From NCBI GenBank assembly GCA_963823665.1, contig CAWGMQ010000004.1, positions 160,001-224,000 on the forward strand: a DNA stretch of 64,000 nucleotides. The letters run 5' to 3'. Positions 37,248 through 57,095 of the stretch are shown here, piece after piece (within the stretch, counting starts at the first letter, position 1; each line of letters begins with the position of its first letter). Below the pieces are notes generated by a model, which was given only the letters and a program-made list of their open reading frames with translations, was not told the origin of the DNA and searched no databases. This stretch comes from an uncultured Planctomycetota bacterium (lineage in GTDB: Bacteria > Planctomycetota > Planctomycetia > Isosphaerales > Isosphaeraceae). Both the position numbers and the translations under genes were made by a program.

Positions 37248-37327
37248 TCATCCTCGACGAAACTCGGGTGACTGACGCTCGAATCAAACAACTGCGGCTG
37301 CCTGCACCGAGACGCACGATCTACTAA
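37248..37327 (+). pseudogene. 3' tail fragment of an LRR cassette gene
   Basis: Near-match to the 3' end of 42071..42655 (VTDAxIKQLRLPAxRxxIY). Confidence 0.7.
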
Positions 37328-37580
37328 GCTGTGGTCTGACGAAAAGGTGCAGCACGAGTTCCGCGACGCAATCGCGCAGGCAAGAACACCAGATGCAAGT
37401 CGATCCATCCGAGCTTCCAAACGCATTTGGATTGAAGAGCGCCGACCATAGCGGTATCGACCCGGAACATTGCATGGAGCCCGACGTGGAACGCGTGGGC
37501 GACGCAGCCTCTGGAGCATTTGGCGACTCAGACGAATTCACGGGAGTTTGGCTGGCAATCGCTTCTCCATACATACTGAC

Positions 37581-37845
37581 ACCAGCTTTACCTTTGCGAC
37601 TTCGCACCTTTGCGTGACCCTCTCTCTCCTTGATATCACTCACTTCAAATACAAATCGCCAGTTCCGATGAGCTCCACGTTGAGTTCATCCTTCCTTTTG
37701 CGCCTTTTTCCCCTTCGCGCCTTTGAGCCCCTCTCCCCGTCTCATCACACAATTCAAACACAAATCGCGCCCCTCCGGGTGTGCTCCGCATTGAGATCAG
37801 CTATCCTTCTGCACCTTTTTCACGTTCGCGCCTTTGCGTGAGCAC
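37581..37845 (+). repeat. Pyrimidine-rich CTT(T/C)GCG..CTTTGCGTGAG repeat array, unit 1
   Basis: Same repeat family at 44442-45030, 50928-51072 and 56985-57095. Confidence 0.8.
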
Positions 37846-37847
37846 CT

Positions 37848-38282
37848 AGGTACACGTCGGCCGAGCTGGCCCGGTTGCTGGCCGTGGAACGGGAGCCGGG
37901 TTGCAAGCTGGCGGTCTCCGTCTTGAATCTCCCGGACCCGGAGGCCGGGCCGAAGCGACGGCCATTGTGCGGGCCGATCCCTTGGAGCTGGTGGCTCCCG
38001 GCCTCCCGGCTCCCGGGGCGGTCTCTCCAGGTTGGCGCCGTCTGTTGGCTCTTGGCGGGTTGGAATCGATCGGCCGAGTTCGAGCTGGTGTTGCATGATC
38101 GGGCCGGGTTCGGCCTCTCCCGGTTCTCGGCCTCCCGCGGCTTGGATACACTGGAGCGGGCCGGGTTGGTTTCTGTTGTGAGACGGCCGGGTCTGTCCCC
38201 GGTCGTGTTGATTCTGGACCCGACGGCTGGGACTGGACGGACACACCCTTTGGAAATCCGAGATGGCGGCGAATTACCATAG
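37848..38282 (+). CDS. Winged-HTH phage/satellite-type protein, copy 1 (5' end replaced by repeat array)
   Basis: GPIPWSWW..ASRLPG.SLQVG..CW, FGLSRFSASRGLDTLERAGLV; three near-identical copies. Confidence 0.6.
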   Translation, partial: RYTSAELARLLAVEREPGCKLAVSVLNLPDPEAGPKRRPLCGPIPWSWWLPASRLPGRSLQVGAVCWLLAGWNRSAEFELVLHDRAGFGLSRFSASRGLDTLERAGLVSVVRRPGLSPVVLILDPTAGTGRTHPLEIRDGGELP

Positions 38283-38335
38283 GAAAAAGGTCATGTGAAA
38301 CGGAAACTTACAAGATTATCTTTGGAGACCCGCCA

Positions 38336-38758
38336 GTGTGGCTGCCGCGAATTCGGTTCAAGCTCCGAAGCTTGATGGTCGCTATAGCCGTGGTTGCGGT
38401 CGCGATCACTGGGGCGCTTTGGGCCTTGAAAATGCGGCGGTTGTCAAAAAACTACGCGAGTGTTGTGCAGCGAGAGAAACAGCTTGAGACGCAATACAAG
38501 CTGTGGCCGGCGCGTTCGAGGCAAAGCGCGGAAGAGTGGGAGCAAAAACGGCCGGATTCGGTAGAGAAGGAATTCTCTTCGTTATCGTCGAAACAGGTGG
38601 CGCTCGGGACAAGCTTAATCTTAGTGTCCACTATTTTCCTATCGATGACACTTTTGGTGGCCTTGATTGCCTACTTACGCAGACCAAAGCGAAAATACTC
38701 GCCCGCCCTAGCCGAGCCCCCCAAACCGAACCAAAGCGGGGAGGCCGGAAGAGTGTAG
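38336..38758 (+). CDS. Variable cargo membrane protein 1 (RFKLRSLM leader + TM)
   Basis: Basic RFxxR leader, two hydrophobic segments; sits between wHTH and MGWKT genes. Confidence 0.65.
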   Translation: MWLPRIRFKLRSLMVAIAVVAVAITGALWALKMRRLSKNYASVVQREKQLETQYKLWPARSRQSAEEWEQKRPDSVEKEFSSLSSKQVALGTSLILVSTIFLSMTLLVALIAYLRRPKRKYSPALAEPPKPNQSGEAGRV

Positions 38759-38765
38759 GTCAAAA

Positions 38766-39068
38766 ATGGGATGGAAAACCATCAACGGACGCCGGTATTA
38801 CTACAAGTCGGAGCGTGAGGGAGGCCGAGTCAAAACCACCTACTTCGGGTCCGGTGAGTCGGGCCTGTTGATCTCGCGAATGGAGGCCATCGATCGGGAG
38901 GAGAAAGACGAATCACGGAATCAGCGTCGGGCCGAGCGGGAGGAATATCGGGCCGAAGAACAGGCCGTTGCGGATTGGTTCGATGACGTCCAGGCCGTGG
39001 CCGATGCGGCGATGATTGCGGCCGGGTTTCACAAGCACAAAGGCCAATGGCGGAGGAGACGGAGATGA
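38766..39068 (+). CDS. Conserved hypothetical 'MGWKTINGRRYYY' protein, copy 1 (intact)
   Basis: Homologues at 45862 and 51868; ATGA overlap with next gene. Confidence 0.75.
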   Translation: MGWKTINGRRYYYKSEREGGRVKTTYFGSGESGLLISRMEAIDREEKDESRNQRRAEREEYRAEEQAVADWFDDVQAVADAAMIAAGFHKHKGQWRRRRR

Positions 39069-39628
39069 ATGACGTTGCTAATGGCGATTCGGGGGCCGTG
39101 GCCGTCTCCAAGCCGAAACCTCCGGCCCCGGGCCAAGAGACTACCGAGCTGTTGAAGCGAGCGACGCGCGGAGAGAAGGGTTGCCTCCCGGAAGTCCGAG
39201 CACTACTCGGCGACGGCGAATATGGAGAAGCGTTGCGAGACTCGAACGGCTCTCAAGCCGAGTGGCTTCGGCGAACCCTCATTGAGAAATCGGCCGGGAA
39301 AAACATTCTCATTCAAGAGGCCGTCACTCAGAAACTCAACACGCTACAGGCCGAGCTGGCCGGACCCAATCCGACGCCGATAGAGCGGTTGCTGGCCGAG
39401 CGGGCCTCCATCTGTTGGTTCATCGTCGATCGATACGAAAACGCTTATGCCAACGCCAACGAATGGACCATCGTCCAATCGGATTTTCAACAACGCAAGA
39501 TCGACAAAGCGCATGCCCCATTCCTCTCGGCTCTCCGGACGTTGGCTCAAGTCCGCAAGCTGGCGTTGCCAACCCTCCAAGTCAACATCGCCAAGAACCA
39601 AGTGAACGTGGCCGGTTCCAACTCATGA
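39065..39628 (+). CDS. Hypothetical helical protein (LAGPNPTPIERLLAER...LQVNIA)
   Basis: Translationally coupled to MGWKT gene; intact ORF. Confidence 0.7.
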   Translation: MNDVANGDSGAVAVSKPKPPAPGQETTELLKRATRGEKGCLPEVRALLGDGEYGEALRDSNGSQAEWLRRTLIEKSAGKNILIQEAVTQKLNTLQAELAGPNPTPIERLLAERASICWFIVDRYENAYANANEWTIVQSDFQQRKIDKAHAPFLSALRTLAQVRKLALPTLQVNIAKNQVNVAGSNS

Positions 39629-39728
39629 AAGAGCCCACACCTCACTCTACCGGGTTGGCATCGACAAGAAGGCGAGTTTCCCGTAAATGTCATCATGGCG
39701 GGTTCCGGTAGACGATGACGTTGGCGAT

Positions 39729-39796
39729 CCGTCCCCGGGGTCAGACCGAGTTTCATCCCCGGGGTCAGACCGTCCCCGGGGTCAGACCGAGTTTCA
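39729..39796. repeat. Triplicated CCCCGGGGTCAGACC motif
   Basis: Three direct copies; region replaces the normal start of the first LRR gene. Confidence 0.75.
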
Positions 39797-39875
39797 AGTG
39801 ATTTGCTTCCCCGTCCCCAAGGTTCAGACCTCGTCGAGTGAATTGGAAGCCGACTTCCGAGGAGGAAACTACCGG

Positions 39876-40598
39876 CAAGCCAAACCCGTCTCCCGTCCCT
39901 GGCGAAGATTCCTGCGCTTCAGCGTGCGGGGGATGATCGTACTTGTGCTGGTGATCGGTGGGTGGCTCGGGTGGATTGTGCGGAGTGCTCGAATCCAGCG
40001 CGAGGCGGTCGCGGCGATTGAGAACGCTGGAGGCCGGGTTGCTTATGACTGGGAGTGGAGCAACGGGAATCATTTTCCAGGAGGAAAACCCTGGGGGCCA
40101 GGATGGCTCGTGGATCTCATCGGACTCGACTACTTCGGGCACGTCACCTTGGTAGTCATCAACTTCTCCCCAAAGGTATCGGTTGCAACGACCGAACAGA
40201 TCGGGCGGCTCACCCGACTCGAGTGTCTGAATCTTACTGGGTCATCCGCTGGCGACGCCGAGCTCGCGCATGTCCAGGCACTGACCAACCTCCGGTTTCT
40301 CCTGCTCGGCGACACCCAGGTCACCGACTCCGGGCTGGTGCATCTAAAGGGGATCGCCAACCTATCCTTGCTTAGCCTCTATCGCACACAAGTCACTGAC
40401 GCAGGGCTGGCCCAACTGAAGGGGCTTACCAACCTGACGGGCCTCAACCTTAACGGCACTCAGGTCACAGACGTAGGGCTCGCGCAACTGAAGGGGCTTA
40501 CCAACCTCAACGTCCTCGCCCTTGATGGCACTCCGGTCACGGATGCAGGGATCTTTGAGCTAAAGCAGACGCCGCGGAGCGTGAGGATCGTCCGTTAA
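39876..40598 (+). CDS. LRR cassette 1: constant leader/TM + N-cap + 5 LRRs (native start lost)
   Basis: QAKPVSRPWRRFLRFSVRG leader, GKPWGPGWLVDLIGLDYFGHV cap, 24-aa LxxLxLxxTxVTDAGLxxL repeats. Confidence 0.8.
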   Translation, partial: QAKPVSRPWRRFLRFSVRGMIVLVLVIGGWLGWIVRSARIQREAVAAIENAGGRVAYDWEWSNGNHFPGGKPWGPGWLVDLIGLDYFGHVTLVVINFSPKVSVATTEQIGRLTRLECLNLTGSSAGDAELAHVQALTNLRFLLLGDTQVTDSGLVHLKGIANLSLLSLYRTQVTDAGLAQLKGLTNLTGLNLNGTQVTDVGLAQLKGLTNLNVLALDGTPVTDAGIFELKQTPRSVRIVR

Positions 40599-40621
40599 TT
40601 TGATGCTCATCCTGCCGGCAG

Positions 40622-40748
40622 GGAACCGTCCCCGTCGCATCGCGAGGAATCGGTCGCGGATCGATGACCCTCCTGGAACGAGCCGCGTGCGGGCCGTTAT
40701 GATAAATCGAGCGAACAGACATCGGTCCTCCGCTCACTACAGGCCGGC
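40622..40748 (+). promoter_or_regulatory. Conserved inter-cassette element A (-35 degenerate, TATGAT at 40698)
   Basis: Homologous to elements at 42675, 43570, 48493, 50197, 55751. Confidence 0.75.
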
Positions 40749-41899
40749 ATGAACGATCAAGCCAACACGGTCCCACGTCCCCGACGAAGATTCCTGCGCT
40801 TCAGCGTTCGGGGGCTGATCGTTCTGGTGCTGGTGATCGGCGGTTGGTCCGGCTGGACTGTGAGGATGCCCGCATTCAGCGCGAGGCGGTGGCGGCGATT
40901 ACGAAAGCCGGAGGCGGAGTTTCGTACTGCTGGGAACGGAAAGACGGCGCAGATATCCGGAGCGGAAAACCTTGGGCGCCGCGGTGGATCGTGGATCGCG
41001 TCGGAGTCGACTACTTCGGTCCCGTTACCAACGCACGTGTGGTCGCCTCCGATGCAACGCTCGCACGGGTTGGACGTCTCACCGAGCTACAGCGTTTGAA
41101 TCTGATTGGTTCTTCCACTAGCGATTCCGGGATGGCACACCTCTCCGGATTGACCAAACTGTCTGTCCTCGACCTGGACGACACTCAGATCACCGATGCC
41201 GGCCTGGCACATCTGAAGGGACTGACTGGCCTCTCCTGCATTGGTGTAGGCGAGACGCAGATCACCGACGCCGGGCTGAGAGGTCTAGAGCCCTTGACCG
41301 AACTCGCGCGGCTCCGCGTCCGCGGGACCAAGATTACCGACACCGGCGTAGGGCATCTGAGGAAATTGACCAAACTTTCCGAACTCGACGTCAGCTACAC
41401 GAAGGTCACCGACGCAGGAATGGCTCATCTGAAGGGGTTGACCAATCTCACGGAACTCAATCTCAGCGGCACTCAGGTCACCGACGCAGGACTTGTCCAT
41501 CTGACCGGGTTGAACAAACTTTCAGACCTGAGCCTCTTTGACGCCGAGATCACCGACGCTGGCCTGGCTCACCTTAGCGGTTTAACTAACCTCAGGAAAC
41601 TCAACCTCGAGGCCACTGGGGTGACGGATCGGGGCTTGGCTCACGTGAACGGGCTCCGCGACCTCTCGAAACTGAACATCAGCTTTACGCATGTCACCGA
41701 CGCGGGATTGGCGCATTTGAAGTGGATGACCAATCTTGAGCGCTTGGACGTCAGCGATACCCGGGTCACCGACGCTGGTCTCGTGCATCTGAAGGGGCTC
41801 AGAAAGCTCTCAGAACTCACTCTTTACGGCACCCGCGTCACCGACGATGGAATAAAACACTTAAAGCAAGCTTTGCCGAGTCTGACGATCACTCGTTGA
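40749..41899 (+). CDS. LRR cassette 2: 11 LRRs (frameshift ~40865)
   Basis: Leader in ORF 40749, cap and 11 repeats in ORF 40844..41899, ALPSLTI C-cap. Confidence 0.85.
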
Positions 41900-42070
41900 T
41901 CCGATGCGCATCTTGCCGGCCTGCATCGCCAGTCTAACTCCTCGACCTTCCATTCGGAGTCTCACCTGGGGGCCGCGCTGGCCTCCAATATGCGAGTCCG
42001 GTGATCATTAGCGTGGGCTGATATACTAACCGAAATGGAGCTACCGACCTACCGCTCGCCGGACGCCGGC

Positions 42071-42655
42071 ATGACCGATCAAGCCAAACCCGTCTCACGC
42101 CCCTGGCGAAGATTCCTGCGCTTCAGCGTGCGGGGACTGATCGTTCTCATGCTTGCAATGGGTGCCGGTCTGGGTTGGCTCGTTCGCGGCGCACGAATCC
42201 AAAGAGAGGCGGTAGCCGCGATCACTAAGGCCGGCGGCACGGTCGTTTATAACTGGAATGAGGATACCTCGCCGTTCAGCCCGGCGGGTAAGCCGTGGGC
42301 GCCGGGCTGGCTCGTCAAATTCATTGGAGTCCACTATTTCGGTCACGTAACGGGCGTCGATTTCTACGACAACGCATCGACCGATGCTGGGCTGGTGCAT
42401 CTAAAGCGGCTAAATAAACTCTCGCGACTGCACCTTGCTGGTACCCAGCTCACCGATGCCGGACTGGTGCACCTGCACGGGCTCACCAATCTTTCCCACC
42501 TCGATCTGAGCTACACCAAGGTCTCGGACGATGGACGGGCGCATCTGAAGCCGTTGAAAAAGCTCTCCCGGCTCGACGTCTTTGGCAATCGAGTCACAGA
42601 CGCTGGAATCAAACAATTGCGGCTGCCTGCACGGAGACCCAGGATCTACTACTGA
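42071..42655 (+). CDS. LRR cassette 3: 3 LRRs
   Basis: MTDQAKPVSRPWRRFLRFSVRG leader; alternative upstream element with GATATACT. Confidence 0.85.
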   Translation: MTDQAKPVSRPWRRFLRFSVRGLIVLMLAMGAGLGWLVRGARIQREAVAAITKAGGTVVYNWNEDTSPFSPAGKPWAPGWLVKFIGVHYFGHVTGVDFYDNASTDAGLVHLKRLNKLSRLHLAGTQLTDAGLVHLHGLTNLSHLDLSYTKVSDDGRAHLKPLKKLSRLDVFGNRVTDAGIKQLRLPARRPRIYY

Positions 42656-42674
42656 GTCGCCGGGAGCTAGCCAC

Positions 42675-42807
42675 CCTGGAATCGTCCCTGTCGCATCGCC
42701 AGGCGGCGAGACGTCGGATCTATTGAGCCTCCTTCGACGACTCGCGTGCAAGCCGTTATGATGAATCGAGCGAACAGACATCGGCCCTCTGCTCACAAGA
42801 GGCTGGC
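42675..42807 (+). promoter_or_regulatory. Conserved inter-cassette element with TCGACG-N17-TATGAT
   Basis: -35 at 42734-42739, -10 at 42757-42762. Confidence 0.75.
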
Positions 42808-43546
42808 ATGAACGATCAAGCCAAATCCGCCTCACGTCCCTGGCGAAGATTCCTGCGCTTCAGCATGCGGGGGATGATCGTCGTTGTGCTGGTGATGGGC
42901 GGCGGGCTGGGATGGCTCGTTCGTCAGCGCCCACATCCAGCGCGACGCTGTGGCGGCGATTCAGCATGCTGGCGGCAACGTCTTATATAGCTGGGAGCGG
43001 AATAATAGAACAGGTACGTCGGGAGGAAAGCCGTGGGCGCCAACTTGGCTCGCGGATCTCATCGGCGTTGACTACTTCGGTCACATCACTTCGGTTTGGT
43101 TCGTTGGGTCCTCGAACACAACCCATTCAGTGCTTGCGCAGGTCGGGTGTCTCACAGGAGCTCACGAGGTGCAATTCAAAGGATGCACCGTTAGCGATGC
43201 CGGGATGGCCCATCTGAGAGGCCTTCGCGGGCTATCTTATCTTGACCTCAGCGGCACTCAAATTACCGACGCCGGGCTGGCCCACTTGAAGGGGTTGACC
43301 AACCTTTCGGGGCTCTTCCTCACGGACACTCACGTTTCCGACGCTGGGTTGGTGCACGTGGAGGGGCTGACCAACCTTCAAATCCTCAGTCTTGCCCACA
43401 GTCAGGTTTCCAATGCCGGTCTGGCGCGTCTGAAGGGGCTAACCAAGCTCAACAAACTCTCGCTCGACGTAAGCCAGGCCACAGACGCTGGTGAACGCGA
43501 GCTCCAGCGGGCTTTGCCGAATCTAAAGGTAAAGGTTTACCCTTGA
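42808..43546 (+). CDS. LRR cassette 4: 5 LRRs (frameshift ~42925)
   Basis: Leader + cap + repeats, ALPNL C-cap. Confidence 0.85.
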
Positions 43547-43569
43547 AATGCTGCCCGTCCAAGCGACAC

Positions 43570-43698
43570 GGAATCGCCCCTGTCGCATCGCCAGCCGTTG
43601 GGACGTCTGATCGTCGACCGTCCTTCGACGAGCCGCATGCGCGCCATTATGATGAATCGAGCGAACAGACATCGGCCCTCCGCTCATAAGACGCCGGC
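43570..43698 (+). promoter_or_regulatory. Conserved inter-cassette element with TCGACG-N17-TATGAT
   Basis: -35 at 43625-43630, -10 at 43648-43653. Confidence 0.75.
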
Positions 43699-44448
43699 AT
43701 GAACGATCAACCCAAACCCGCCTCCCGTCCCTGGCGAAGATTCCTGCGCTTCAGCGTGCGGGGGATGATTGTACTGGTGATCGTGATCGCCGGCTGCCTT
43801 GGATGGATCGTACGTAGCGCCCGCAACCACCGACAGGCCGTCGCGGCAATTATCAAGATGAATGGGGAGGTGGGGTACGTGGACGACTCGCGGACCTCCT
43901 TACAAGCGATGCGTGGCGAGCGTTCTCTCAGGTACCTGATCGGCGACTGGTTGGCTATCAACGACGTTTTCAGCGGCGTCCATGTCCGGCTCACGTTGAA
44001 AGAAGGCATGGACCAGGAACTGGCGCTCGCGCCCGTAGGCGATTTGACAAACCTCCAATCACTGAGTTTTGTGGGCGGCGCCATTCAAGATTCCGCGATC
44101 GAGAAAATCGGGCGGGCGAACAACCTCAAATGGCTCCAAATCCAATCCGCACCGCTCACCCGCGTTGGGTTCCGGCATTTGACGCAGTACAAGAACCTGG
44201 AGCACTTGTTCCTCTACGACATCGACATTCCCGAAGGGGCGTTCGAGCACTTCGGCGCGCTGGCGAATCTGAAAACACTCGAGATGCACCAATGCTGGCG
44301 AGTGGACAAAGGCCTTGCCGAGATGCAAGTACCGCCGCGCCTTGCGACCCTCCGTATCCGTTACGCGCCGCTCTCGGATGCCGGCCTCAAGCACATCGCG
44401 CGGCTGCCGCACCTCACAGAACTTTTCCTGGAAGACGTTCTCGACTGA
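43699..44448 (+). pseudogene. LRR cassette 5: 3'-truncated near-duplicate of 48625..49776
   Basis: Colinear with 48625 copy until GAAGACGTTCTCG, then cut by the repeat array. Confidence 0.85.
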
Positions 44449-45030
44449 ATTCAGCTCGACCTTTGCGACTTCTCGCCTTTGCGTGAGCCCCTTTCTCATC
44501 ACACACTTCAAACACAAATCGCGCCCCTGCTGGTGTGCTCCGCACTGAGTTCACCTTTCCTTTTGCGCCTTTTTCCCCTTCGCGCCTTGCGTGAGCCCCT
44601 CTTTTCTCCCGATCACGCATCCAAGAAAATCACCTTGCCCCGTCGCGCATCGCCGCGACTGAATTCAGCTCGACTTTTGCGACTTCTCGCCTTTGCGTGA
44701 GCCCCTCTCTCATCACACACTTCAAACACAAACCGCGCCCCTGCTGGTGTGCTCCGCACTGAGTTCATCTTTCCGTTTGCGCCTTTTTCCCCTTCGCGCC
44801 TTGCGTGAGCCCCTCTTTTCTCCCGATCACGCACCCAAAAAAATCGCCTTGCACCGTCGCGCATCGCCACGACTGAATTCAGCTCGACCTTTGCGACTTC
44901 GCGCCTTTGCGTGAGCCCCTCTTTTGTTCTCGTCACACACCCCAAAAACAAATCGTGCGCCTTCGCGTGTCCTCCCCATTGACATCGCCTCTCCTTTGCG
45001 CCATGTTCCCCTTCGCGCCTTTGCGTGGAC
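44442..45030 (+). repeat. Pyrimidine-rich repeat array, unit 2, with 214-bp tandem duplication
   Basis: CGACTGAATTCAGCTCGAC starts at 44442, 44656, 44870. Confidence 0.9.
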
Positions 45031-45034
45031 CCCT

Positions 45035-45427
45035 CGGTACACGTCGGCCGAGCTGGCCCGGTTGCTTGCCGTGAAACGTGAGCCGAGTTGCAAGCTGGCG
45101 GTCTCCGTCCCGGCTCCCCCGGACCCGGAGGCCAGGCCGAAGCGCAGGCCGTTGTACGGGCCAATCCCGTCGAGCTGGTCGCCCCCGGCCTCTCGGCTCC
45201 CGGGGAAAACCCTCCAGGTCGGGGCCATCTGTTGGCTCTTGGCGGGTTGGAATCGAACGGCCGCGTTCGAGCTGGCGCTGGAGGATCGGCCCGAGTTCGG
45301 CCTCTCCCGGTTCTCGGCCTCGCGGGGCCTCGATACACTGGAAACGGTTGGATTGGTCTCCAAGGTCCGTCGGCCGGGCCGGTCTCCGATCGTGTTGCTC
45401 CGGGACGCTACGGTGGGAAATTCTTGA
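45035..45427 (+). CDS. Winged-HTH protein, copy 2
   Basis: Homologous to 37848 copy with the same 5' junction GGTACACGTCGGCCGAG. Confidence 0.6.
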   Translation, partial: RYTSAELARLLAVKREPSCKLAVSVPAPPDPEARPKRRPLYGPIPSSWSPPASRLPGKTLQVGAICWLLAGWNRTAAFELALEDRPEFGLSRFSASRGLDTLETVGLVSKVRRPGRSPIVLLRDATVGNS

Positions 45428-45439: not shown

Positions 45440-45808
45440 ATGATGCCGCGAGTTCGATTCCGAGTTCGGACAATCCTGCTCTTCATCGCGGTGGTTGCCG
45501 TCCTACTCGCAATGCCGCGAATCGTCTCCCAGTTGTCGCGCATTCGGCCGTTTTGGCTAGAGTGGGATGGCACGATCCTTTGGTTCGTGGAAGACAGGGT
45601 GACGGGGATAGTATACAGCCACGCGCCCACCGTCGTCTTTCACCATTCAGTTAAGACCGAGGTCCCGCTGCCATCGCCTACAACTCTGCTACGAATTGTT
45701 GCGGCGAGCCTGATCTTGGCATCCGCGTTCGTTTATCGGCGCAAGCTTAAGAACCGTGCGAAGCTCCGAGAGACTGCAACTAACAGCGGTGCTTCAGAAT
45801 CCAATTAA
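45440..45808 (+). CDS. Variable cargo membrane protein 2 (RFRVRTIL leader + TM)
   Basis: Same slot as cargo 1, unrelated body. Confidence 0.65.
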   Translation: MMPRVRFRVRTILLFIAVVAVLLAMPRIVSQLSRIRPFWLEWDGTILWFVEDRVTGIVYSHAPTVVFHHSVKTEVPLPSPTTLLRIVAASLILASAFVYRRKLKNRAKLRETATNSGASESN

Positions 45809-45861
45809 TTGACGGGCAAGCGCAGACCGAAGCGGGAAGGCCGAGAAAGTGTAAGTTAAGA

Positions 45862-48374: not shown

Positions 48375-48492
48375 TCGATTTGCTGACGCTACCGATTCGC
48401 TTACCTGAGTCGGCCGTGCGCACGCAGTTAGATACAATTTTCGGATGTTGGTGCGACAACCTTAACGAACGCCCATCGCGATCGCCAAGCGG

Positions 48493-48624: not shown

Positions 48625-49776
48625 ATGACCGATCAAGCCAAACCCACCACACGTCCCTGGCGAAGATTCCTGCGCTTCAGCGTGCGGGGGCTGATTGTAC
48701 TGGTGATCGTGATCGCCGGCTGCCTTGGATGGATCGTACGTAGCGCCCGCAACCACCGACAGGCCGTCGCGGCAATTATCAAGATGAATGGGGAGGTGGC
48801 GTACATGGACGACTCGCGGACCTTCTTACAAGCGATGCGCGGCGAGCGTTCTCTGAGGTACCTGATCGGCGACTGGTTGGGTATCAACGACGTTTTCAGC
48901 GGCGTCCATGTCCGGCTCACGTTGAAAGAAGGCACGGACCAGGAACTGGCGCTCGCGCGCGTAGGCGATTTGACAAACCTCCAATCACTGAGTTTTGTCG
49001 GCGGCGCCATTCAAGATTCCGCGATCGAGAAAATCGGGCGGGCGAACAACCTCAAATGGCTCCGGATCCAATCCGCACCGCTCACCCGCGTTGGGTTCCG
49101 GCATTTGGCGCAGTACAAGAACCTGGAGTACTTGTTCCTTTACGACATCGAGATTCCCGAAGGGGCGCTCGAGCACTTCGGCGCGCTGGCGAATCTGAAA
49201 ACACTCGAGATGCACCAATGCTGGCGAGTGGACAAAGGCTTTGCCGAGATGCAAGCACCGCCGCGCCTCGCGACCCTCCGTATCCGTTACGCGCCGCTCT
49301 CGGATGCCGGCCTCAAGCACATCGCGCGGCTGCCGCACCTCACAGAACTTTCCCTGGAAGACGTTCTCGTGACCGACGCCGGAATGGCAAGCCTCCAGGG
49401 CCTGTCCCAGCTCACCGAGCTTCGCCTGAAAAGCGATGATTTGACCGACGCCGCCTTGGCGAGCCTGGCCAGCCTGCGCACCATCCGCCGCCTTTCGATC
49501 GACGTACCAAGAATCACAGACGCAGGTGCCGAGCATCTGGCCCAGCTCACCAACCTCGAGTCGTTAAACTTCACTCGAGAAAGATTGACCGACGCAGGCA
49601 TCATGAAGTTAAAGCCGCTCAAGAAACTAGCCTTGCTGAACATCGGCAGGACAGGAATTACTGAGGACGGCGCCAGCGAACTCCAGAAGGAGTTGCCCAA
49701 GCTCGTGGAGATCACCAGAGGAACGAGAGCTGCCTCAGTTCCAAGACTTCCGCGCGCCAAAACCGCCGGCCGCTAG
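48625..49776 (+). CDS. LRR cassette 6: 10 divergent LRRs, intact
   Basis: Constant leader, different N-cap, 24-aa periodicity, ELPKL C-cap. Confidence 0.88.
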   Translation: MTDQAKPTTRPWRRFLRFSVRGLIVLVIVIAGCLGWIVRSARNHRQAVAAIIKMNGEVAYMDDSRTFLQAMRGERSLRYLIGDWLGINDVFSGVHVRLTLKEGTDQELALARVGDLTNLQSLSFVGGAIQDSAIEKIGRANNLKWLRIQSAPLTRVGFRHLAQYKNLEYLFLYDIEIPEGALEHFGALANLKTLEMHQCWRVDKGFAEMQAPPRLATLRIRYAPLSDAGLKHIARLPHLTELSLEDVLVTDAGMASLQGLSQLTELRLKSDDLTDAALASLASLRTIRRLSIDVPRITDAGAEHLAQLTNLESLNFTRERLTDAGIMKLKPLKKLALLNIGRTGITEDGASELQKELPKLVEITRGTRAASVPRLPRAKTAGR

Positions 49777-49792
49777 CTAGCCACACACGTCC

Positions 49793-49905
49793 CGTGTAGC
49801 AGGCACACTCCGTGTGCCGTCCGCCGAACTTGCCGGTGGGTGGCACTGGCCAGCTCAGTGCTCCAATTCTCGGGCGATTCGCTGTCCCGGAATCGCGAAA
49901 AGCCA
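49793..49905 (+). repeat. ~110-bp REP-like element (TGTAGCAGGCACACTCCGTGTGCC...)
   Basis: Second copy at 52983-53092. Confidence 0.8.
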
Positions 49906-50196: not shown

Positions 50197-50274
50197 TCCT
50201 TCGACGAGCCCCGTGCGGGCCGTTATGATCAATCGAGCGAACAGACATCGGCCCTCCGCGCAGAAGAGTCCGGC
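50197..50274 (+). promoter_or_regulatory. Promoter half of the inter-cassette element
   Basis: -35 at 50201-50206, -10 at 50224-50229. Confidence 0.75.
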
Positions 50275-50765
50275 ATGAACGATCGAGCGAAACCCGCCGC
50301 CCGTCCCTGGCGAAGATTCCTGCGATTCAGCGTGCGGGGAATGATTTTTCTTGTGGTGGTGATCGGTGGATGGCTTGGCTGGATCGTGCGAAGCGCGCGG
50401 ATTCAGCGCGATGCCGTGGACGCGATCACCAAAGCCGATGGGCAGGTCACATATGACTGGCACTGGACCGGGACCGACCGGAAGGTTGCTCCGACGGGAA
50501 GACCTTGGGCGCCCAGGTGGGTGGTGGATCTCGTTGGAGTTGACTATTTCGGAAACATCAGATGCGTCTTGTTCTACTCACCGTCCAAAGCAACCGGAGC
50601 AACGATCGCACAGGTTGGGCGCCTATCCCAACTACAGGAACTGCATCTCGATGAGTCGTCGCTAGACGACGCCAGCATGGTGCATTTGAAGGGGCTGACC
50701 GAACTCTACTGGTTCAGTCTCAGTGACACTCCGGTCACCGGCGCCGGGCTGGCGCAATTGACGCA
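50275..50765 (+). pseudogene. LRR cassette 7: leader + cap + 2 LRRs, C-cap missing
   Basis: Homology ends after GAGLAQL; ORF then reads through the conserved tail motif (50819-50846) and repeat array. Confidence 0.75.
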
Positions 50766-50927
50766 TATTCACAATTCGCTAGCTTGCTGTCACTGCCTTG
50801 CCCCCCATCGGCGAACGGCCTGGAATCGTCTCCGTCGCATCGCCAGGGTGGACGCGCCCAACTTCCACGCCTCGGTGCAAGCGCGTTCTATGAGCCGACG
50901 TGGCCTCCGGCCAGGCCAATCGCACGC

Positions 50928-51072
50928 AGCCTTACCTTTGCGGCTTCGCGTGAGCCCCTCTTTTGTTCTCCTTGCACGCCCCAAAAACAAATCGTGCGTC
51001 TGCGCGTGTCCTCCCCGTTGAGTTTGCCACTCCCTTTGCGCCTTGTTCCCATTCGCGCCTTTGCGTGAGCCC
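50928..51072 (+). repeat. Pyrimidine-rich repeat array, unit 3
   Basis: Similar to 44885-45030. Confidence 0.8.
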
Positions 51073-51074
51073 CT

Positions 51075-51467
51075 CGGTACACGTCGGCCGAGCTGGCCCG
51101 GTTGCTAACCGTGGAACGGGAGCCGGATTGAAAGCTGGCGATCTCCGTCCCGGCTCTCCCGGACCCGGAGGCCAGGCCGAAGCGCCGGCCGTTGTACGGG
51201 CCGATCCATTGGAGCTGGTGGCTCCCGGCCTCTCTGCTCCCCGGGAAGTCCCTCCAGGTCGGGGCCGTCTGTTGGCTCCTGGTGGGTTGGAATCGATCGG
51301 CGGAGTTCGAGCTGGCGTTGCATGATCGGGCGGAGTTCGGCCTCTCCCGGTTCTCGGCCTGCCGGGGCTTCGATACACTGGAAAACGCCGGGTTGCTCTC
51401 GACCATTGGACGGCCGGGCCGGTGTCCCAAGGTGATGATCGTGGATGCTCACCCAGGAAATGGTTGA
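51075..51467 (+). pseudogene. Winged-HTH copy 3 with in-frame TGA
   Basis: EREPD*KLA where copies 1 and 2 read REP(G/S)CKLA. Confidence 0.7.
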
Positions 51468-51479: not shown

Positions 51480-51836
51480 GTGAGGGCATTCCGCTTCCGA
51501 ATCCGGGCGATCATGATCGTGATCGCTACCCTCGCTCTCGCACTTGGCGCGGTTCGATTAGCCCTTCACTACCAGATTGCGAGATTGTCGGTTGAAATCG
51601 GCGAACCCAATTTTGTGATTCTGCATTTGTGGTCGGGTGTCCATCTTACGCAGCGCGGCACGGAGGCAGTCTCGATACAGTTTTCGCTTCAGGAAATGCT
51701 CGTTTGCGTCGGCCTATTTGCCTGCTGCTGCGCGGTACTCTTGCGCCAGTCCAGAACACGCGGCGAAAGGCAAAGCGCTGACTCTGGAGTCATGCCCACA
51801 CGCAGTGTTCCGATAAGGAAATCCCGGGCGCCTTGA
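51480..51836 (+). CDS. Variable cargo membrane protein 4 (RFRIRAIM leader + TM)
   Basis: Same slot between wHTH and MGWKT. Confidence 0.65.
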   Translation: MRAFRFRIRAIMIVIATLALALGAVRLALHYQIARLSVEIGEPNFVILHLWSGVHLTQRGTEAVSIQFSLQEMLVCVGLFACCCAVLLRQSRTRGERQSADSGVMPTRSVPIRKSRAP

Positions 51837-51867
51837 AGCGGAGCTGCCGAGAGAGTGTAGGTTAAAA

Positions 51868-52125
51868 ATGGGATGGAAAACCATCAACGGCCGTCGCTAT
51901 TGCTACAAGTCCGCTACCGCGGCAAACGGCTGATTTCGTCGGGGGATGACGTTGCGTGTTCGCTTCCGAATCCGGACGATCATGCTCGTGGTCGCGGCGA
52001 CGGCGGTCATGTTGGGTCTATGACTACAAGTCGGAGCCCGAGGGAGGCCGAGTCTATACCGCCTTCTTCGGCGCGGGTGAGTCGGGCCCGTTGATTTCAC
52101 TCCTGGGGCGGGAGCATCGGGCTTG
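51868..52125 (+). pseudogene. MGWKT copy 3 interrupted by a ~120-bp insert
   Basis: Insert flanked by direct repeat CTACAAGTC; encodes MTLRVRFRIRTIMLVVAATAVMLGL* (51946-52023). Confidence 0.75.
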
Positions 52126-52139: not shown

Positions 52140-52496
52140 TCAACCCTTCTTACCTGCCTGCCGCTTTTGTTTGGTAGCAGGTGCGGCCTTCGCGGATCGA
52201 GTCGGCGCTACTTTCTTCGACGGAGCTTTCTTGACCGAAAGCGCAGCAGTTTTCTTCTTCGCCGCCACCTTCTTGGTTTTGGAAGCCTGCGCCATCGCCT
52301 TCGGGGCAGGTTTCGACGTCTTGCCCTGCACGGCTTTGGAAGAAGCCTTCGCGCCTTTGGGTGTGCCGCGTGTCGGCATCATATCCCCCACCGCGTGCAT
52401 GGCTTTGGACCCAGCGTTGATCACGACTTCTGCCGCCGACGTCGCCGCATCGCCAATCCGCTCAAGCACGCCTTTGGATTTCTTTTTGCTCAGCAT
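52140..52496 (-). CDS. Lys/Ala-rich histone H1-like protein
   Basis: Very basic K/A/S-rich low-complexity tail. Confidence 0.6.
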   Translation of the reverse strand: MLSKKKSKGVLERIGDAATSAAEVVINAGSKAMHAVGDMMPTRGTPKGAKASSKAVQGKTSKPAPKAMAQASKTKKVAAKKKTAALSVKKAPSKKVAPTRSAKAAPATKQKRQAGKKG

Positions 52497-52736
52497 CAAA
52501 CGCTCCCTGCGTGGTTAGGCAGTGTGTCAACTGTCCCTTCTTCAAGCGACACACAGCATATTCTAGGCTTCGGTCCCCGCGCTTCCTATTCCTTTCGATG
52601 GAATTGCGGGACGATGAGCGACCCCGCCCGGCGGCCGGAGCGACTCCAACCCGCCGCGCCGACACGTGTGTCACTCCGCGATTACAATCCTTGATGTGAG
52701 CGCGACGAACCGTTGACGTCCCTGGGAACGCGGCTG

Positions 52737-52925
52737 ATGTCGCCTATTCGCTTCCGAATCCGGTCGATCATGATCGCCAACTAGCGTCGCCGCGTCCGTC
52801 CGGCTCCGTGCCTCCCTGGCAGATTCTCCAAGCGGCCAACGCCCTGAAGGCCGACGACGCGGGCCCGACAACGGCGGAGGGAGTTGAAGCCGGGTTGGAT
52901 CACAAGCGATTCATTGAATCACTAA
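52737..52925 (+). pseudogene. Leader fragment MSPIRFRIRSIMIA joined to second copy of the VRLxASL fragment
   Basis: 52785-52925 homologous to 48227-48365. Confidence 0.55.
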
Positions 52926-53200
52926 ATAGCATTGCACGATCATGCGACTCAGGTGGGCGGCACTAGCTTCGCCCGTGGTCCGGTGTAGCAGGCACACTCC
53001 GTGTGCCGTCCGCCGAGGTTGTCGGTGGGTGGCACTGGCTGTGCCAGTGCTCCATGCCCGGGCAAATCGCCGTCCCGGAATCGCGAATAGCCACTTAGGC
53101 GGACGATCCGTCGGTCCAAACGCGTTTTTTGGTATGATCGCAGTCGCAGTAGGCATCCAGCCAACGCCTTCGACACGTCCCTCTCTCAGGAGCTTCAACG

Positions 53201-53617
53201 ATGCGTCCGCTTGTACGAGCGCTGTCGTGCAATCTGGTCGCTTTGGTCCTGCTCTGGCCGTCGTCAGCATCCGCGACGACGATCGACTGGATGACTTTCG
53301 AGGAGTTGGTGCTCGGGGCAGATTTCGTCGGCATCGTCGAGTGCGATCGAGCGGGCGGTGTCGTTGCCGGATACTCGGTGCTCGAGTCGTGGAAAGGGCC
53401 CAGGGCCGGTACTCACATTACTATTCGTGTCGCGGTGAACTACTGGGAGCCCCAGTTCCCGATCACCCTCTGCGGCGAGCGATACTTTGTGACGGCGTTC
53501 AAGCAGGCTCCGTTCCCATGGCGAGAGTCCCACACCGCAACTTGCGGAATCGGGTGCTCGTTCTGCTCTCGAACTCAGCTCATGCAAGCGGCGCCCCACG
53601 GCCGGAGAAAACTATGA
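53201..53617 (+). CDS. Secreted hypothetical protein, probably truncated
   Basis: AGGAG RBS, signal peptide ending ASA, FEELVLGADFVG motif. Confidence 0.5.
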   Translation: MRPLVRALSCNLVALVLLWPSSASATTIDWMTFEELVLGADFVGIVECDRAGGVVAGYSVLESWKGPRAGTHITIRVAVNYWEPQFPITLCGERYFVTAFKQAPFPWRESHTATCGIGCSFCSRTQLMQAAPHGRRKL

Positions 53618-53779
53618 ACTCAGCGAATTCGTTCGAGTCTCTCCTGAGCTGGTGGAAAACACACGGCGACAAGCTGGTCCTCGATGACCCATGGCTGGCG
53701 ATCTTGGAGAAACAGAAGATCGATTGATCGCGCCCGGAAACACGGCAACATATCGACGCCGCACCCACATGAGATCGCC

Positions 53780-54103
53780 ATGTGCAGACAACCCAATCCC
53801 GTCTCCCGTCCCAGGCGAAGATTCCTGCGCTTCAGCGTCCGGGGCCTGATTGTTCTTGTTCTTGTGATCGGTGCTTGGCTCGGCTGGATGGTCCGCAGTG
53901 CACGTATTCAACGGGAAGCGGTGGCGGCGATCGAAAATGCGGGAGGCGAAGTCCTCTATGACCGCGAGTGGACCGACGCCGGGCTGGTGCACCTGAGCAA
54001 GCTGCCCAGCCTTTCGGAACTCTACATCGACGACGCTCAGATCACCGACGCCGGAGTGAAAGAACTCCAGCAAGCTTTGCCACGCCTGACGATCGAACGC
54101 TAA
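53780..54103 (+). CDS. LRR cassette 8: minimal version, 1 LRR + C-cap
   Basis: In-frame join YDREW|TDAGLVHL removes N-cap and most repeats. Confidence 0.75.
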   Translation: MCRQPNPVSRPRRRFLRFSVRGLIVLVLVIGAWLGWMVRSARIQREAVAAIENAGGEVLYDREWTDAGLVHLSKLPSLSELYIDDAQITDAGVKELQQALPRLTIER

Positions 54104-54267
54104 TTGGATGCCCATCCAACCGGCCAGCAAGCATCGTTGTCGCATCGCCACGCGTCGGCTCACCGATCCATCGAGATCCCCCCAGATCGCGTCTGAGAGC
54201 GTGTCTGTGAATCGAACGTGCGGCACGATCCAATGACCGTTGAGGAATTGGGCGCGACGATTGATCG

Positions 54268-54303
54268 CTCCCTCTCCCTCCGGGAGAGGGCCGGGGTGAG
54301 GGT
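54268..54303. repeat. CCCTCTCCC...GGGAGAGGG...GGGTGAGGG REP-like hairpin
   Basis: Palindromic; degenerate copy at ~36635-36668. Confidence 0.7.
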
Positions 54304-54397
54304 CCTTCCGCATGCGACCGCAATTCGCAGACACGCTCTGAGCGGATATACTGAGCCCACCGAAGTAACTTCGACCGTCTGCTCGCCAAAAGCCAGC

Positions 54398-54514
54398 ATC
54401 GCCGATCAAGCCAAACCCACCACACGTCCCTGGCGAACATTCCTGCGCTTCAGCGTGCGGGGGATAATTGTTATTGTGCTCGTGATCGCCCGGCCGGGGG
54501 GGTGTAGTTCTTAG
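54398..54514 (+). pseudogene. LRR cassette 9: leader only (ATG mutated to ATC)
   Basis: IADQAKPTTRPWRTFLRFSVRGIIVIVLVIA then diverges. Confidence 0.75.
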
Positions 54515-54584
54515 CTGACAAACAGTTCGTAAACCGCGGCCAGATTGGATTCCAGTAACCAGGTACGCATATAACACATAAAGC

Positions 54585-55058
54585 ATGATGATGCGCCGCC
54601 CACGTTTGCGGCTTACGATCGCGGGGATCATGGGGATCGTCGCGTGTACTGCCCTCGTTCTGGGGTGCCTCGTCGAGGCAGGTCGGATCAGGCGCACACA
54701 GGCATTCTATCTTCGTGAATCCGCAAAATTTGCCCAGCTCGAGAGCCGCGAAATCCAGAACCAGTCTCTCTATTTGAAGGCCGCACTGCTGGAGAAGAAT
54801 CTCATTGAACGTATGCGAGAAAGAGACGCCGAACGACAGGCGGCCATCCGAGATCACTTTTATGCCCCGATGAAGCGGATCGCTCCAGACACCGAGCGCT
54901 ACAAAATAAACTTCGAGAGGGGCAGGAAATATCTTACTCACTTGGACGAGTCACGAATCAAGGCGAAGCGGTATTCCGAACTGAGCCGCCGGTACAAAAG
55001 GGCCGGTACCTGCCTCTGGCTGCCCTTTGGACCAAACCCCTTGAATCGCGGTGACTGA
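54585..55058 (+). CDS. Membrane-anchored coiled-coil protein with RLRLTIAGIM leader
   Basis: Basic leader + TM, C-terminal KRY...RYKRA...W.P..P.P motif. Confidence 0.65.
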   Translation: MMMRRPRLRLTIAGIMGIVACTALVLGCLVEAGRIRRTQAFYLRESAKFAQLESREIQNQSLYLKAALLEKNLIERMRERDAERQAAIRDHFYAPMKRIAPDTERYKINFERGRKYLTHLDESRIKAKRYSELSRRYKRAGTCLWLPFGPNPLNRGD

Positions 55059-55100
55059 CGGAGCGAAAAGACATCGTGCAGTCGCTCGCCAGAGGCCGGC

Positions 55101-55730
55101 ATGACCGATCAAGCGAGATCCACCACCCGTCCCTGGCGAACATTCCTGCGCTTCAGCGTCCGCGGGATGATCGTTCTTGTGCTGGTGATCGGTGCCGGGC
55201 TCGGCTGGGTGGTCCGGGTGGTCCGTACCGCTCAGATTCAACGTGAGGCAGTGGCGGAGAACACGCGAGCGGGGGATCACCGACCTCCTCACCAACCGCA
55301 GGTCTAGCATCCCGACGATCTTCGATTGACGGCTTGCTGGGCGCGGGTCTCATGACGCCGCCCTCCTCACCGACCGCAGGTCTCCAGGCGGCCGTCCCGG
55401 CAATCCAAGATTGTCGCAGCACTTGTTGGGCGCGGGTTTCATGACCCCGCCCCCCTCACCGACCGCAGGTCTCCAGAAGGAATGGTGCATCTGAGGGGAA
55501 TGACCAAACTACGCTCCCTCGATCTCAGCACCACACAGGTCTCCGGTCCCGGACTGGTGCATCTGCAACGGCTCAACTCCCTGAAGAGCCTTCGGCTTTG
55601 GGGCACTCAGTTATCCGACGAATCGCTGGTTTATCTGAAGGGCTTGGCCTTCGTCTCAGAACTCGACGTCAATGGCACACACCTCAGCAGTGCAGGTTGG
55701 GAAGAGCTGAGTCGGTGGCGCAATCATTAA
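55101..55730 (+). pseudogene. LRR cassette 10: middle replaced by REP-like block; about 3 LRRs remain
   Basis: Leader 55101-55256, repeats 55275-55474, LRRs 55482-55730. Confidence 0.75.
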
Positions 55731-55750
55731 CTTGAAGCCCAACAATCCGG

Positions 55751-55888
55751 CCTGGAATCGTCCCTGTCGCATCGCCAGCCGTCGGCGTCGGGACGTCAGA
55801 TCATCGACCCTCCTTCGACGAGCCGCGTGCGAGCCGTTATGATGAACCGAGCGAATAGAGATCGGCACTCCATTCACAAGAGGCCGGC
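55751..55888 (+). promoter_or_regulatory. Conserved inter-cassette element with TCGACG-N17-TATGAT
   Basis: -35 at 55815-55820, -10 at 55838-55843. Confidence 0.75.
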
Positions 55889-56842
55889 ATGACCGATCAA
55901 GCCAAACCCGTCTCCCGCCCCCGGCGAAGAGTTCTGCGCTTCAGCATGCGGGGGATGATGGTACTCGTGCTGGCGATTGGAGGCTGGCTCGGCTGGTTCG
56001 TGCGGAGCGCTCGCATTCAGCGCGAGGCCGTGGCGGCGATTCAGAAGGGCGGCGGCGAAGTCCACTTTCAGTGGGAGTGGAAGAACGGGACCGTCGTGCC
56101 GGGAGGAAAGCCTTGGGCGCCTGAACAGCTCGTGAAACTACTCGGCGTCGACTATTTCGGTCACATCGCCCACGTGTCGTTCGCCACGAGAGCACAGCTT
56201 GCGAAGCCAACGAGGGACTTGCTCGCACAGCTCGGGGAAATACAACGCCGATCGGCGGAATTGGATGACGTGCGCTATTCGATGATGGAGGCTGAATTCT
56301 CTCACGCCGACGATCTATATCAAAGGCTGATTCTCTCGGGCGAGCTCACGCCCAAGCCACTGATGCCGCTCTTGAAGGGTCAGAGCAAGCTAGCCCATCT
56401 CGATCTTCGCGACAACGACCTGATCTTCGAAGGCTTGGCTCAAATGGAAGAGCTGACCAGCCTGACGACGCTCGACCTTGGCGGCACGGGGATCACGGAT
56501 TCCCAACTGGTGCACCTGAAGAAATTGAGACAGCTCTCAGAGCTTCATCTGGACTCTGTCAACATCTCTGATGCCGGGCTAGCGAATCTGGCGGGACTGG
56601 CCCGAATGTCCCACCTCGACCTCGAGAAGACAGGGGTTACCGACTCCGGTCTGGTTCATTTGGGCCGGCTGACGAAGCTTAGAAAGCTCAGCCTCGCATT
56701 CACTCAGGTCACCGATCGAGGATTGGTACACCTCAAGGAATTGACAAGTCTTTTGCATATCGACCTCAGTTCCACGGGTGTCACGGATGAGGGTGTGAAG
56801 GAGCTGAGGCTCGCCTTGCCGAACGCGACGATCGTGCGCTGA
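55889..56842 (+). CDS. LRR cassette 11: 6 LRRs plus helical insertion, intact
   Basis: Leader, cap, non-LRR insert, repeats, ALPNATIVR C-cap. Confidence 0.88.
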   Translation: MTDQAKPVSRPRRRVLRFSMRGMMVLVLAIGGWLGWFVRSARIQREAVAAIQKGGGEVHFQWEWKNGTVVPGGKPWAPEQLVKLLGVDYFGHIAHVSFATRAQLAKPTRDLLAQLGEIQRRSAELDDVRYSMMEAEFSHADDLYQRLILSGELTPKPLMPLLKGQSKLAHLDLRDNDLIFEGLAQMEELTSLTTLDLGGTGITDSQLVHLKKLRQLSELHLDSVNISDAGLANLAGLARMSHLDLEKTGVTDSGLVHLGRLTKLRKLSLAFTQVTDRGLVHLKELTSLLHIDLSSTGVTDEGVKELRLALPNATIVR

Positions 56843-56984
56843 CTTCTTGCTCACGCAATCGCCCTGGAATCGTCTCTGTCGCATCTCCACGCTGGAGCCG
56901 TCAAACTCCCGGCCGGCGATTCAATCGCATTCCGTCAGCCGTTCAGCCCGCCCCCTCCCCGAAGCGTGCAGCTACTCATATACA

Positions 56985-57095
56985 GCTCTACCTTTGCGAC
57001 TTTGCGACTTTGCGTGAGCCACTCTTCTGATCTCATTTCACGCACCCACCCCAAAAAAACTTCGTTCCCCTCCGCGTGAGCTCCCCATTGAGATC
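56985..57095 (+). repeat. Pyrimidine-rich repeat array, terminal copy (no wHTH follows)
   Basis: GCTCTACCTTTGCGACTTTGCGACTTTGCGTGAGCC. Confidence 0.7.

Follow-up and report, generated by a model that had tools for sequence, protein, structure and literature searches.

We analysed a 64-kb window from an uncultured soil bacterium of the Isosphaeraceae (genome G000; the window is G000:C4:160001-224000, and bare positions below are in window numbering), in which an island of ~21 kb starts at tRNA-Arg(ACG) (35683-35757, + strand) and extends to a Uma2 gene at 57207. The island is a decayed tRNA island made up of short cassettes of two kinds, cargo genes framed by gene stubs and leucine-rich repeat (LRR) genes behind a leader, both from an integrative element that encodes a DNA polymerase (PolA). 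We consider it probable that the island is a collection of right-arm remnants of this small element, likely grown by local duplication of stub-flanked modules and then by recombinational cargo swapping. A preliminary description of the same DNA had proposed three units of 6-7 kb with a constant backbone and different payloads; the observation is real but mis-scaled. Beyond that description, we find that the backbone is the right arm of the PolA element only, and that stub-cargo-stub modules also occur at other tRNAs in this genome and in relatives. Comparisons are with the sister species G001, the relatives' genomes G008, G018, G020, G068 and G071, and numbered loci (L followed by three digits).

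The recurring order itself is readily found. Frames of a winged helix-turn-helix (wHTH) protein begin at 37848, 45035 and 51075, with 81-82% DNA identity over ~500 bp in a self comparison; pyrimidine-rich arrays lie at 37575-37847, 44442-45035, 50936-51075 and 56980-57099; a gene termed MGWKT starts in each unit (38766, 45862 and 51868); an LRR tail precedes unit 1 (37248-37328); a VRLxASL fragment occurs in units 2 and 3 (48234 and 52784); and the bias to the + strand holds for 11 of 11 LRR heads. The self-similarity of these parts is far beyond chance (BLAST E down to 1e-168), the payloads differ between units and the backbone has decayed. In contrast, the proposed 6-7 kb periodicity is missing from the self comparison, in which long diagonals are absent and collinearity reaches at best 25%, 23% and 21% of a unit, the value for units 1 and 2 including an out-of-register 883-bp duplicate. 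The strongest 12-mer offset, 4.9 kb, comes from a recent 94% LRR duplicate (43559-44443 vs 48485-49369) that is out of register, and the offsets of 6.0, 7.1 and 13.2 kb come from a ~1.2-kb head module. The recurring parts are this head (REP-like repeat, C-terminal half of wHTH, one small membrane-protein gene and 5' part of MGWKT) and a ~0.3-kb LRR leader/head. Nor is the backbone constant, given that the 39065 protein (QVN) is present once, MGWKT is whole in unit 1 only and the VRLxASL fragment is absent from unit 1.

All three heads have the junction repeat|GGTACACG|TCGGCCGAG with a derived codon right behind it, missing from eight relatives, and the repeat-wHTH junction pattern has no exact match in metagenome_contigs. 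A junction and derived codon common to three heads point to local descent from one truncation. Hence local duplication, as part of the tandem amplification suggested earlier, stands, and the amplification of whole 6-7 kb units does not. That one such unit was amplified in tandem three or four times, with payloads that then diverged or were almost wholly replaced, would agree with the common junction, the similar spacing (6.0-7.2 kb), the likeness of the ends of units 2 and 3 (50816-50897 vs 56860-56941, 73%) and the element gene order retained inside units. We nevertheless find it unlikely, given that collinear cover is just 21-25%, that units 2 and 3 have single-copy payloads collinear with those of G001, a genome without the junctions, and that the wHTH bodies do not form one clade.

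The backbone had been attributed to a satellite-like integrative element targeting tRNAs, and intact elements of relatives bear this out in carrying the trio of wHTH, MGWKT and 39065 protein. The parent order is tRNA, integrase, X, DUF1580, small gene, SSB-like gene, PolA, double wHTH, slot B, MGWKT, QVN, TerS-like gene, slot C, right end and attR, over about 9.4-9.5 kb. G020 has tRNA-Val, a tyrosine integrase, a helix-turn-helix (HTH) gene, DUF1580, a small gene, the SSB-like gene and a family A polymerase (PF00476), followed rightwards by double wHTH, MGWKT, QVN, a TerS-like HTH gene and a 44-bp repeat of the tRNA 3' end. In G018, at tRNA-Arg(TCG), the order is the same, the repeated tRNA 3' end measures 42 bp and there is no TerS-like match. 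Both genomes thus show the two marks of a tRNA-integrated element, a PF00589 integrase beside the tRNA and, at the element's other end, the tRNA 3' end repeated in direct orientation. The wHTH frame of the window corresponds to the second domain of the element's 218-238-aa double winged-helix protein, and its model is a confident generic winged helix (pLDDT 85.5; best Z 8.1; viral fold matches at E > 0.005). The VRLxASL fragment is the C-terminus of the element's TerS-like gene, which encodes a 140-aa HTH protein with weak TerS matches (PHROG E 5e-4, Pfam Sf6_terminase E 0.011) and weak transposase-HTH matches too. Modelling of the SSB-like protein gave weak OB-fold/gp32 matches only (Z 4.0-4.4). 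MGWKT, QVN and the slot-B cargo received no family from Pfam, PHROG, PADLOC or Atlas, and one cluster of MGWKT look-alikes is viral, which is a lead only. The 18 parent proteins scanned yielded no primase or helicase family, and no helicase was seen in G020 or G018.

MGWKT is present in 54 of 121 Isosphaeraceae genomes. Among the best 80 of 136 polymerase loci, which span Planctomycetota, Proteobacteria and Acidobacteriota, the SSB-like gene stands beside PolA in 75 and wHTH in 67; a tRNA lies within the stretch examined in 34, and MGWKT with QVN in 2. Two PolA loci and no QVN locus were found in viral_contigs. Across phyla the trio of SSB-like gene, PolA and wHTH recurs (L100-L179) with a single-domain wHTH; a few planctomycete loci are the only ones in which we saw the double-domain form. 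An almost complete element that closely resembles those of Isosphaeraceae also stands at the start of a contig labelled Actinomycetes (L045:1-7400). This contig is probably chimeric, the other reading being cross-phylum transfer, and it is not used for host range.

The window retains pieces from the C-terminal half of wHTH rightwards only, in element order. It contains no integrase (E<0.01), DUF1580, SSB-like gene, PolA remnant or attR, so that integrase and attR, the marks of a live tRNA-integrated element, are both missing. The longest downstream repeat of the tRNA-Arg(ACG) 3' end is 14 bp, at 46191, where it sits in a codon motif of the cargo gene 46154 and is probably a chance match and not an attR. 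An integrase arm-like motif at 39647, with one match in 64 kb, is within chance and was not used. Genome-wide in G000, the element's PolA as query found one distant polymerase only (27% identity) and its SSB-like protein found no match; the nearest related whole integrase lies at another tRNA, tRNA-Pro (G000:C6:1610016). Half-decayed stages occur elsewhere: L184, at tRNA-Phe, has integrase, PolA fragment, wHTH, MGWKT stub and LRR head, and L053, at tRNA-Arg(ACG) with a different upstream flank, has PolA fragment, wHTH, cargo, MGWKT stub and LRR genes.

All three wHTH stubs are on the + strand. Stub 1 (37848-38282) has an open frame with the native start lost, stub 2 (45035-45427) has a junction identical to those of stubs 1 and 3, and stub 3, which with array 3 (50936-51075) occupies 50936-51467, has a frame beginning at 51075 with one in-frame stop. 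Stub 1 is 89% identical to a copy at tRNA-Phe in G001:C4 and 83-85% identical to stubs 2 and 3, and a clade of the three wHTH stubs was rejected (approximately unbiased (AU) test, p=0.025), which we read as later recombination. Synonymous divergence (dS) is 0.22-0.34 between stubs, compared with 0.44-0.53 between core genes of G000 and G001 (three genes) and 0.12-0.26 for island genes common with G001. Joints from MGWKT to wHTH have a ~9-bp microhomology in four cases (three in G001 and one at window 46019) and a second microhomology in one case, and joints from MGWKT to the TerS-like gene are found three times in L052/L053. The 5' ends of the stubs are scattered over hundreds of bases. A candidate promoter inside the wHTH stub (TACACT) was dropped, as only some stubs have one.

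In G001 the corresponding island spans 29.6 kb between tRNA-Arg(ACG) and Uma2 and holds 11 wHTH 3' stubs and no repeat-wHTH junction. Cargo 46154, AbiEi, a Lys/Ala-rich gene, the 54170 block and the end block are common to both genomes in the same order, and are single-copy in the window. A pair of DarT and Macro-domain (DarG-like) genes lies in the G001 island (L083:7040-8569), with similar open reading frames (ORFs) at L053:17452-19197. Elsewhere in G000, stubs and LRR genes lie downstream of tRNA-Arg(CCG) and tRNA-Phe, and LRR genes only downstream of tRNA-Asp and tRNA-Ala. At tRNA-Arg(CCG) (G000:C7:488014-505000), a 34-bp attR-like repeat 6.6 kb downstream of the tRNA is followed by four wHTH stubs, MGWKT stubs, cargo and an LRR gene; the proximal part of this C7 island contains a pentapeptide-TIR gene.

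These islands bear on whether three related elements integrated successively at the tRNA and decayed separately, with no local duplication. The C7 island has its 34-bp tRNA 3' repeat upstream of the stubs, unit 1 is the most intact, nearest the tRNA and closest to foreign copies, and serial integration matches the pattern published for tycheposons (bioRxiv 10.1101/2020.12.28.424599; here and below, published systems are compared through parts of the cited papers). However, three independent decays would not yield one identical repeat-wHTH junction, and att copies between units are absent, which makes this account improbable.

Slot B, between wHTH and MGWKT, holds the more variable cargo. It is empty in L052 and contains unrelated DNA in some elements; in G000, G001, G008, L053 and L184 it carries a gene of 66-210 aa that mostly starts R(F/L)R(I/F)R and has predicted membrane helices (our own hydropathy window). 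The gene differs from module to module, and most pairs are <45% identical. In the window, all on the + strand, unit 1 carries a 140-aa cargo with RFKLR and two predicted transmembrane (TM) helices (38336-38758), whose stop lies 8 nt before the MGWKT start, followed by a conserved promoter-like motif with the intact 100-aa MGWKT gene (38736-39068) and the intact QVN gene (39047-39628), both of the element's right arm. Unit 2 has a 122-aa cargo with two predicted TM helices (45440-45808), a 5' stub of MGWKT with its promoter-like motif, joined to a wHTH 3' stub through the microhomology TCGGGCCGA (45832-46131), and cargo 46154 (46154-46477; 107 aa, two predicted TM helices), which has 67% identity over 54 aa to the G001 gene at the equivalent place. 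In unit 3, a 118-aa cargo with two predicted TM helices is followed by two MGWKT 5' fragments (51480-52122). We picked 27 cargo starts by hand and kept the 19 that an MGWKT stub follows within 900 nt, excluding the other 8; all 19 of these complete slots are open to ≤60 nt from the MGWKT start while the backbone is broken, and 11 of the 19 share a stop codon 8 nt before that start. One of the 8 excluded starts appears frameshifted. Similarity between loci indicates that cargo moves: a 74%-identical cargo lies at tRNA-Arg(CCG) in G000 and tRNA-Arg(ACG) in G001, and a block with a 138-aa ORF and an LRR head (53101-53900, + strand) is 82-93% identical to an island at G000:C6, ~1,324,000.

Slot C, after the TerS-like gene, holds an LRR gene in G008 and G071. 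Five LRR cassettes on the + strand (39687-44448), three with a full leader of ~140 bp, follow the right arm of unit 1; their heads are open at 39876 and 42071, frameshifted at 40749 and 42808 and truncated at 43699. Further along on the same strand are a leader with an open 383-aa LRR gene (48485-49776), whose first 885 bp are 94% identical to 43559-44443; a partial leader with a truncated LRR gene and element right-end sequence (50197-50897); deleted and interrupted LRR cassettes with a 157-aa membrane-anchored cargo at 54585-55058 (53780-55730); and a leader with an open 317-aa LRR gene and element right-end sequence (55751-56941). The LRR tail on the + strand at 37248-37328, 87% identical to 42589-42651, is a remnant of an earlier module. 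The LRR head family is present in 72 of the 121 family genomes, with at least 42 copies each in G000, G001 and G068, and the heads are under purifying selection between paralogs (dN/dS 0.18-0.32). Close to the window but beyond its limits, about ten more membrane-anchored LRR genes lie on the - strand downstream of tRNA-Ala (G000:C4:128000-158500). Another two divergent MGWKT-QVN pairs (33-48% identity), which lack wHTH and are preceded by an LRR gene, lie at G000:C8:360200-364500.

The leader's 5' part matches what follows the TerS-like gene, or the LRR gene, in L045 and G008. Its 3' part carries a sigma70-like TCGACG-17-TATGAT in five copies, which are paralogs (8 sites found vs 4.1 expected). 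Reading the leader as an attC site or structured RNA gained no support, since the one copy folded does so no better than shuffles (z -0.54) and the leaders have no Rfam match. A dedicated site-specific system, integron- or shufflon-like, that captures and orders cassettes could explain the conserved ~140-bp leader on each LRR cassette, the fixed 5' and 3' flanks of the cargo genes and the one joint that recurs four times. We regard such a system as very improbable. None of 18 IntI matches in genome G000 exceeds the TIGR02249 cut-off and none lies near the island; the leader has a promoter-like site, attC cassettes being usually promoterless; stub ends are scattered; and the recurring joint may be inherited.

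The pyrimidine-rich arrays are a dispersed repeat: its 27 matches are spread over 6 contigs, the window accounting for 7, and a reversed control gave none, which rules the arrays out as element-specific ends. Array 1 (37575-37847), array 2 (44442-45035; 214-bp period, 2.7 copies), which cuts off LRR 43699, and array 4 (56980-57099), followed by Uma2 (57207-57752), are all on the + strand; array 4 and Uma2 also terminate the G001 island. Another cluster, with six copies of the repeat core, lies at G000:C4:1836480-1837650. The island also carries insertions of at least four other REP-like families, at 37088-37229, 48047-48222, 49789-49905 and 36621-36711. The first is a 74-bp tandem repeat with an Rfam Acido-Lenti-1 match barely over cut-off; the second, a 78-bp repeat, is also found at 55280-55476, where a REP-like family splits an LRR gene (neither repeat has a strand assigned).

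Given that the assembly consists of 12 contigs (16.46 Mb, 3.5% contamination), that no record spans a unit and that the two 94% LRR copies were found in different runs, the island might be a chimeric assembly of strain variants. We compared it with contigs from four soil runs (X1-X4) of two studies, with shares of 0.06-0.12 and thin coverage; the source sample may be among them, and stretches that they leave uncovered carry no weight either way. Zero-difference contigs bridge the repeat-wHTH (X2, 37798-37948), wHTH-cargo (X1, 38236-38484), LRR-leader-LRR (X1, 40507-40866) and right end-repeat (X3, 50843-50993) joints. These short-read contigs across several joints, the 15-17% difference between copies, far beyond that of alleles, and an island of the same kind at the same site in G001 leave a chimera highly unlikely. 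G001 has coding indels in core genes relative to G000, which indicates that single frameshifts in such assemblies can be errors.

For the growth of the island from right-arm remnants, the following steps would fit. Elements would have integrated at tRNA-Arg and lost the left arm. A REP-like repeat would have joined once to mid-wHTH, after which the ~1.2-kb head was duplicated; the MGWKT/wHTH microhomologies would duplicate slot B, and the leader/head slot C. Homologous recombination through stubs that are 80-90% identical may then have swapped cargo and stub bodies, the partners being other islands or incoming elements, and the stubs likely serve as recombination handles for this swapping. Cargo frames would be retained because they are useful or recently acquired. 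The weakest part concerns the cargo itself, which we guess acts in cell-envelope defence or recognition (phage exclusion or a decoy) beside AbiE, transcribed from the retained MGWKT and leader promoters; behind the guess are LRR folds, membrane-anchor predictions and the neighbouring defence genes (AbiE in the window, DarT and Macro in G001). A broader proposal, possible and on balance doubtful, is that large-genome Isosphaeraceae have domesticated the cargo slots of PolA elements into an integrase-free cassette library, in which stubs provide homology arms and promoters, and hypervariable membrane proteins and membrane-anchored LRR proteins are taken up, duplicated and shuffled between tRNA islands and species as a diversifying surface-recognition or anti-phage repertoire.

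Several points weigh against growth by local duplication and cargo swapping. The AU rejection of a clade of the three wHTH stubs is a modest result, based on 365 columns and a test run after a first tree had been seen. The direction of change relative to G001 is not fixable from two genomes, as G001 could have lost heads, and no read or contig of the soil runs spans a whole unit. LRR genes in the window are open from head to tail in 4 of 11 cases by eye and in 1 of 11 by a strict script. Several LRR clusters in G000 (five others) have no tRNA in the stretch examined; the C8 cluster is 10 kb from a tRNA on the opposite strand. Beyond the hand-picking of cargo starts and the exclusion of 8 of them, the shuffled chance of an open slot-B frame (0.001-0.11 each) overstates significance because the slots are related. 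Two cargo pairs have dN/dS of 1.3-1.4, not different from 1, so that the open frames are unmatched by amino-acid conservation.

Other features of the island include a TerS-like 5' remnant of a second element type (35863-36141, - strand), with 76% DNA identity to 3184-3343, the start of the gene preceding a terminase large subunit, and with no match at protein level. It is of the same type as a gene at 3261-5031 (+ strand), downstream of tRNA-Ala (6834-6906, - strand), where a TerS-like HTH gene is followed by a 472-aa terminase large subunit (PF03237); no capsid gene was recognised among the ORFs listed. An AbiE pair (46481-48036, + strand; type IV toxin-antitoxin/abortive infection) has an intact AbiEi and an AbiEii split over frames, either in reality or through a sequencing error. 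The TerS-like C-terminal (VRLxASL) fragments lie at 48234-48374 and 52784-52923 (both + strand), and the 119-aa Lys/Ala-rich gene, single-copy, at 52140-52499 (- strand), with 92% DNA identity and the same order in G001.

The series from intact element to amplified stubs shows how cargo slots can persist after the element itself is gone and give rise to paralog expansions, and it suggests where some of the many LRR genes with membrane anchors in these planctomycetes originated. Three orphan proteins (MGWKT, QVN and double wHTH) thereby gain a source and are linked to a widespread SSB-PolA-wHTH element in which no primase is recognisable. We found no account of the parent element or of stub-flanked cassette arrays in the literature, subscription papers and supplements being outside the scope, and the parent is not described in the parts of two surveys that cover polymerases (PMC10201439, PMC12926913).

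Pipolins (PMC11551731) are likewise tRNA-integrated; they encode a DNA polymerase of their own and combine a small core with exchangeable cargo, but their polymerase is a primer-independent PolB. As the polymerase here is family A (PF00476), the parent does not qualify as a pipolin. For the replication pair, the closest counterpart is CCPol-MP-Cch2 of SCCmec (PMC7581432), in which an A-family polymerase stands beside a small ssDNA-binding partner on a mobile element, together with a helicase and with de novo priming; here the third gene is a wHTH and not a helicase, the polymerase has 580-610 aa, and the module is absent from the window. Tycheposons (Hackl et al., bioRxiv 10.1101/2020.12.28.424599) are tRNA-targeting tyrosine-integrase elements with att sites of ~40 nt, some with a small terminase, whose degenerate copies and carried material accumulate distal to the tRNA and recombine with active elements. 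The island described here would share this tRNA-seeded growth. However, the tycheposons described there are Prochlorococcus elements and have primase/helicase replication genes where the parent has SSB-like gene, PolA and wHTH, and degenerate fragments form a small share of their islands, whereas this one is largely amplified backbone stubs framing cargo (bioRxiv 10.1101/2020.12.28.424599).

The parent, a possible phage satellite, also carries the pair of integrase (PF00589) and AlpA-like regulator (DUF1580, weak phrog_66 match) that characterises phage satellites. In phage-inducible chromosomal islands (PICIs), hotspots for cargo lie between conserved genes. The parent resembles PICIs and other phage satellites in its ~10-kb size and integrase and, weakly, in a TerS-like gene (bioRxiv 10.1101/2020.12.28.424599). 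Alike too are the AlpA/excisionase-like DUF1580 and the defence cargo (AbiE here; DarT and Macro-domain in G001); as differences from PICIs, the scanned parent proteins show no primase/helicase, with SSB-like gene, PolA and wHTH in its place, the TerS likeness of the parent is weak (PHROG E 5e-4) and its cargo slots were amplified in the chromosome. Integron cassette arrays are tandem variable genes between repeated flanks. The island has such a row as well, but its flanks are gene stubs and promoters, with neither an integron integrase nor an attC-like hairpin, and the array is not an integron. If it is true that the cargo is a selected, shuffled repertoire, these elements would have reached an integron-like outcome without an integrase.

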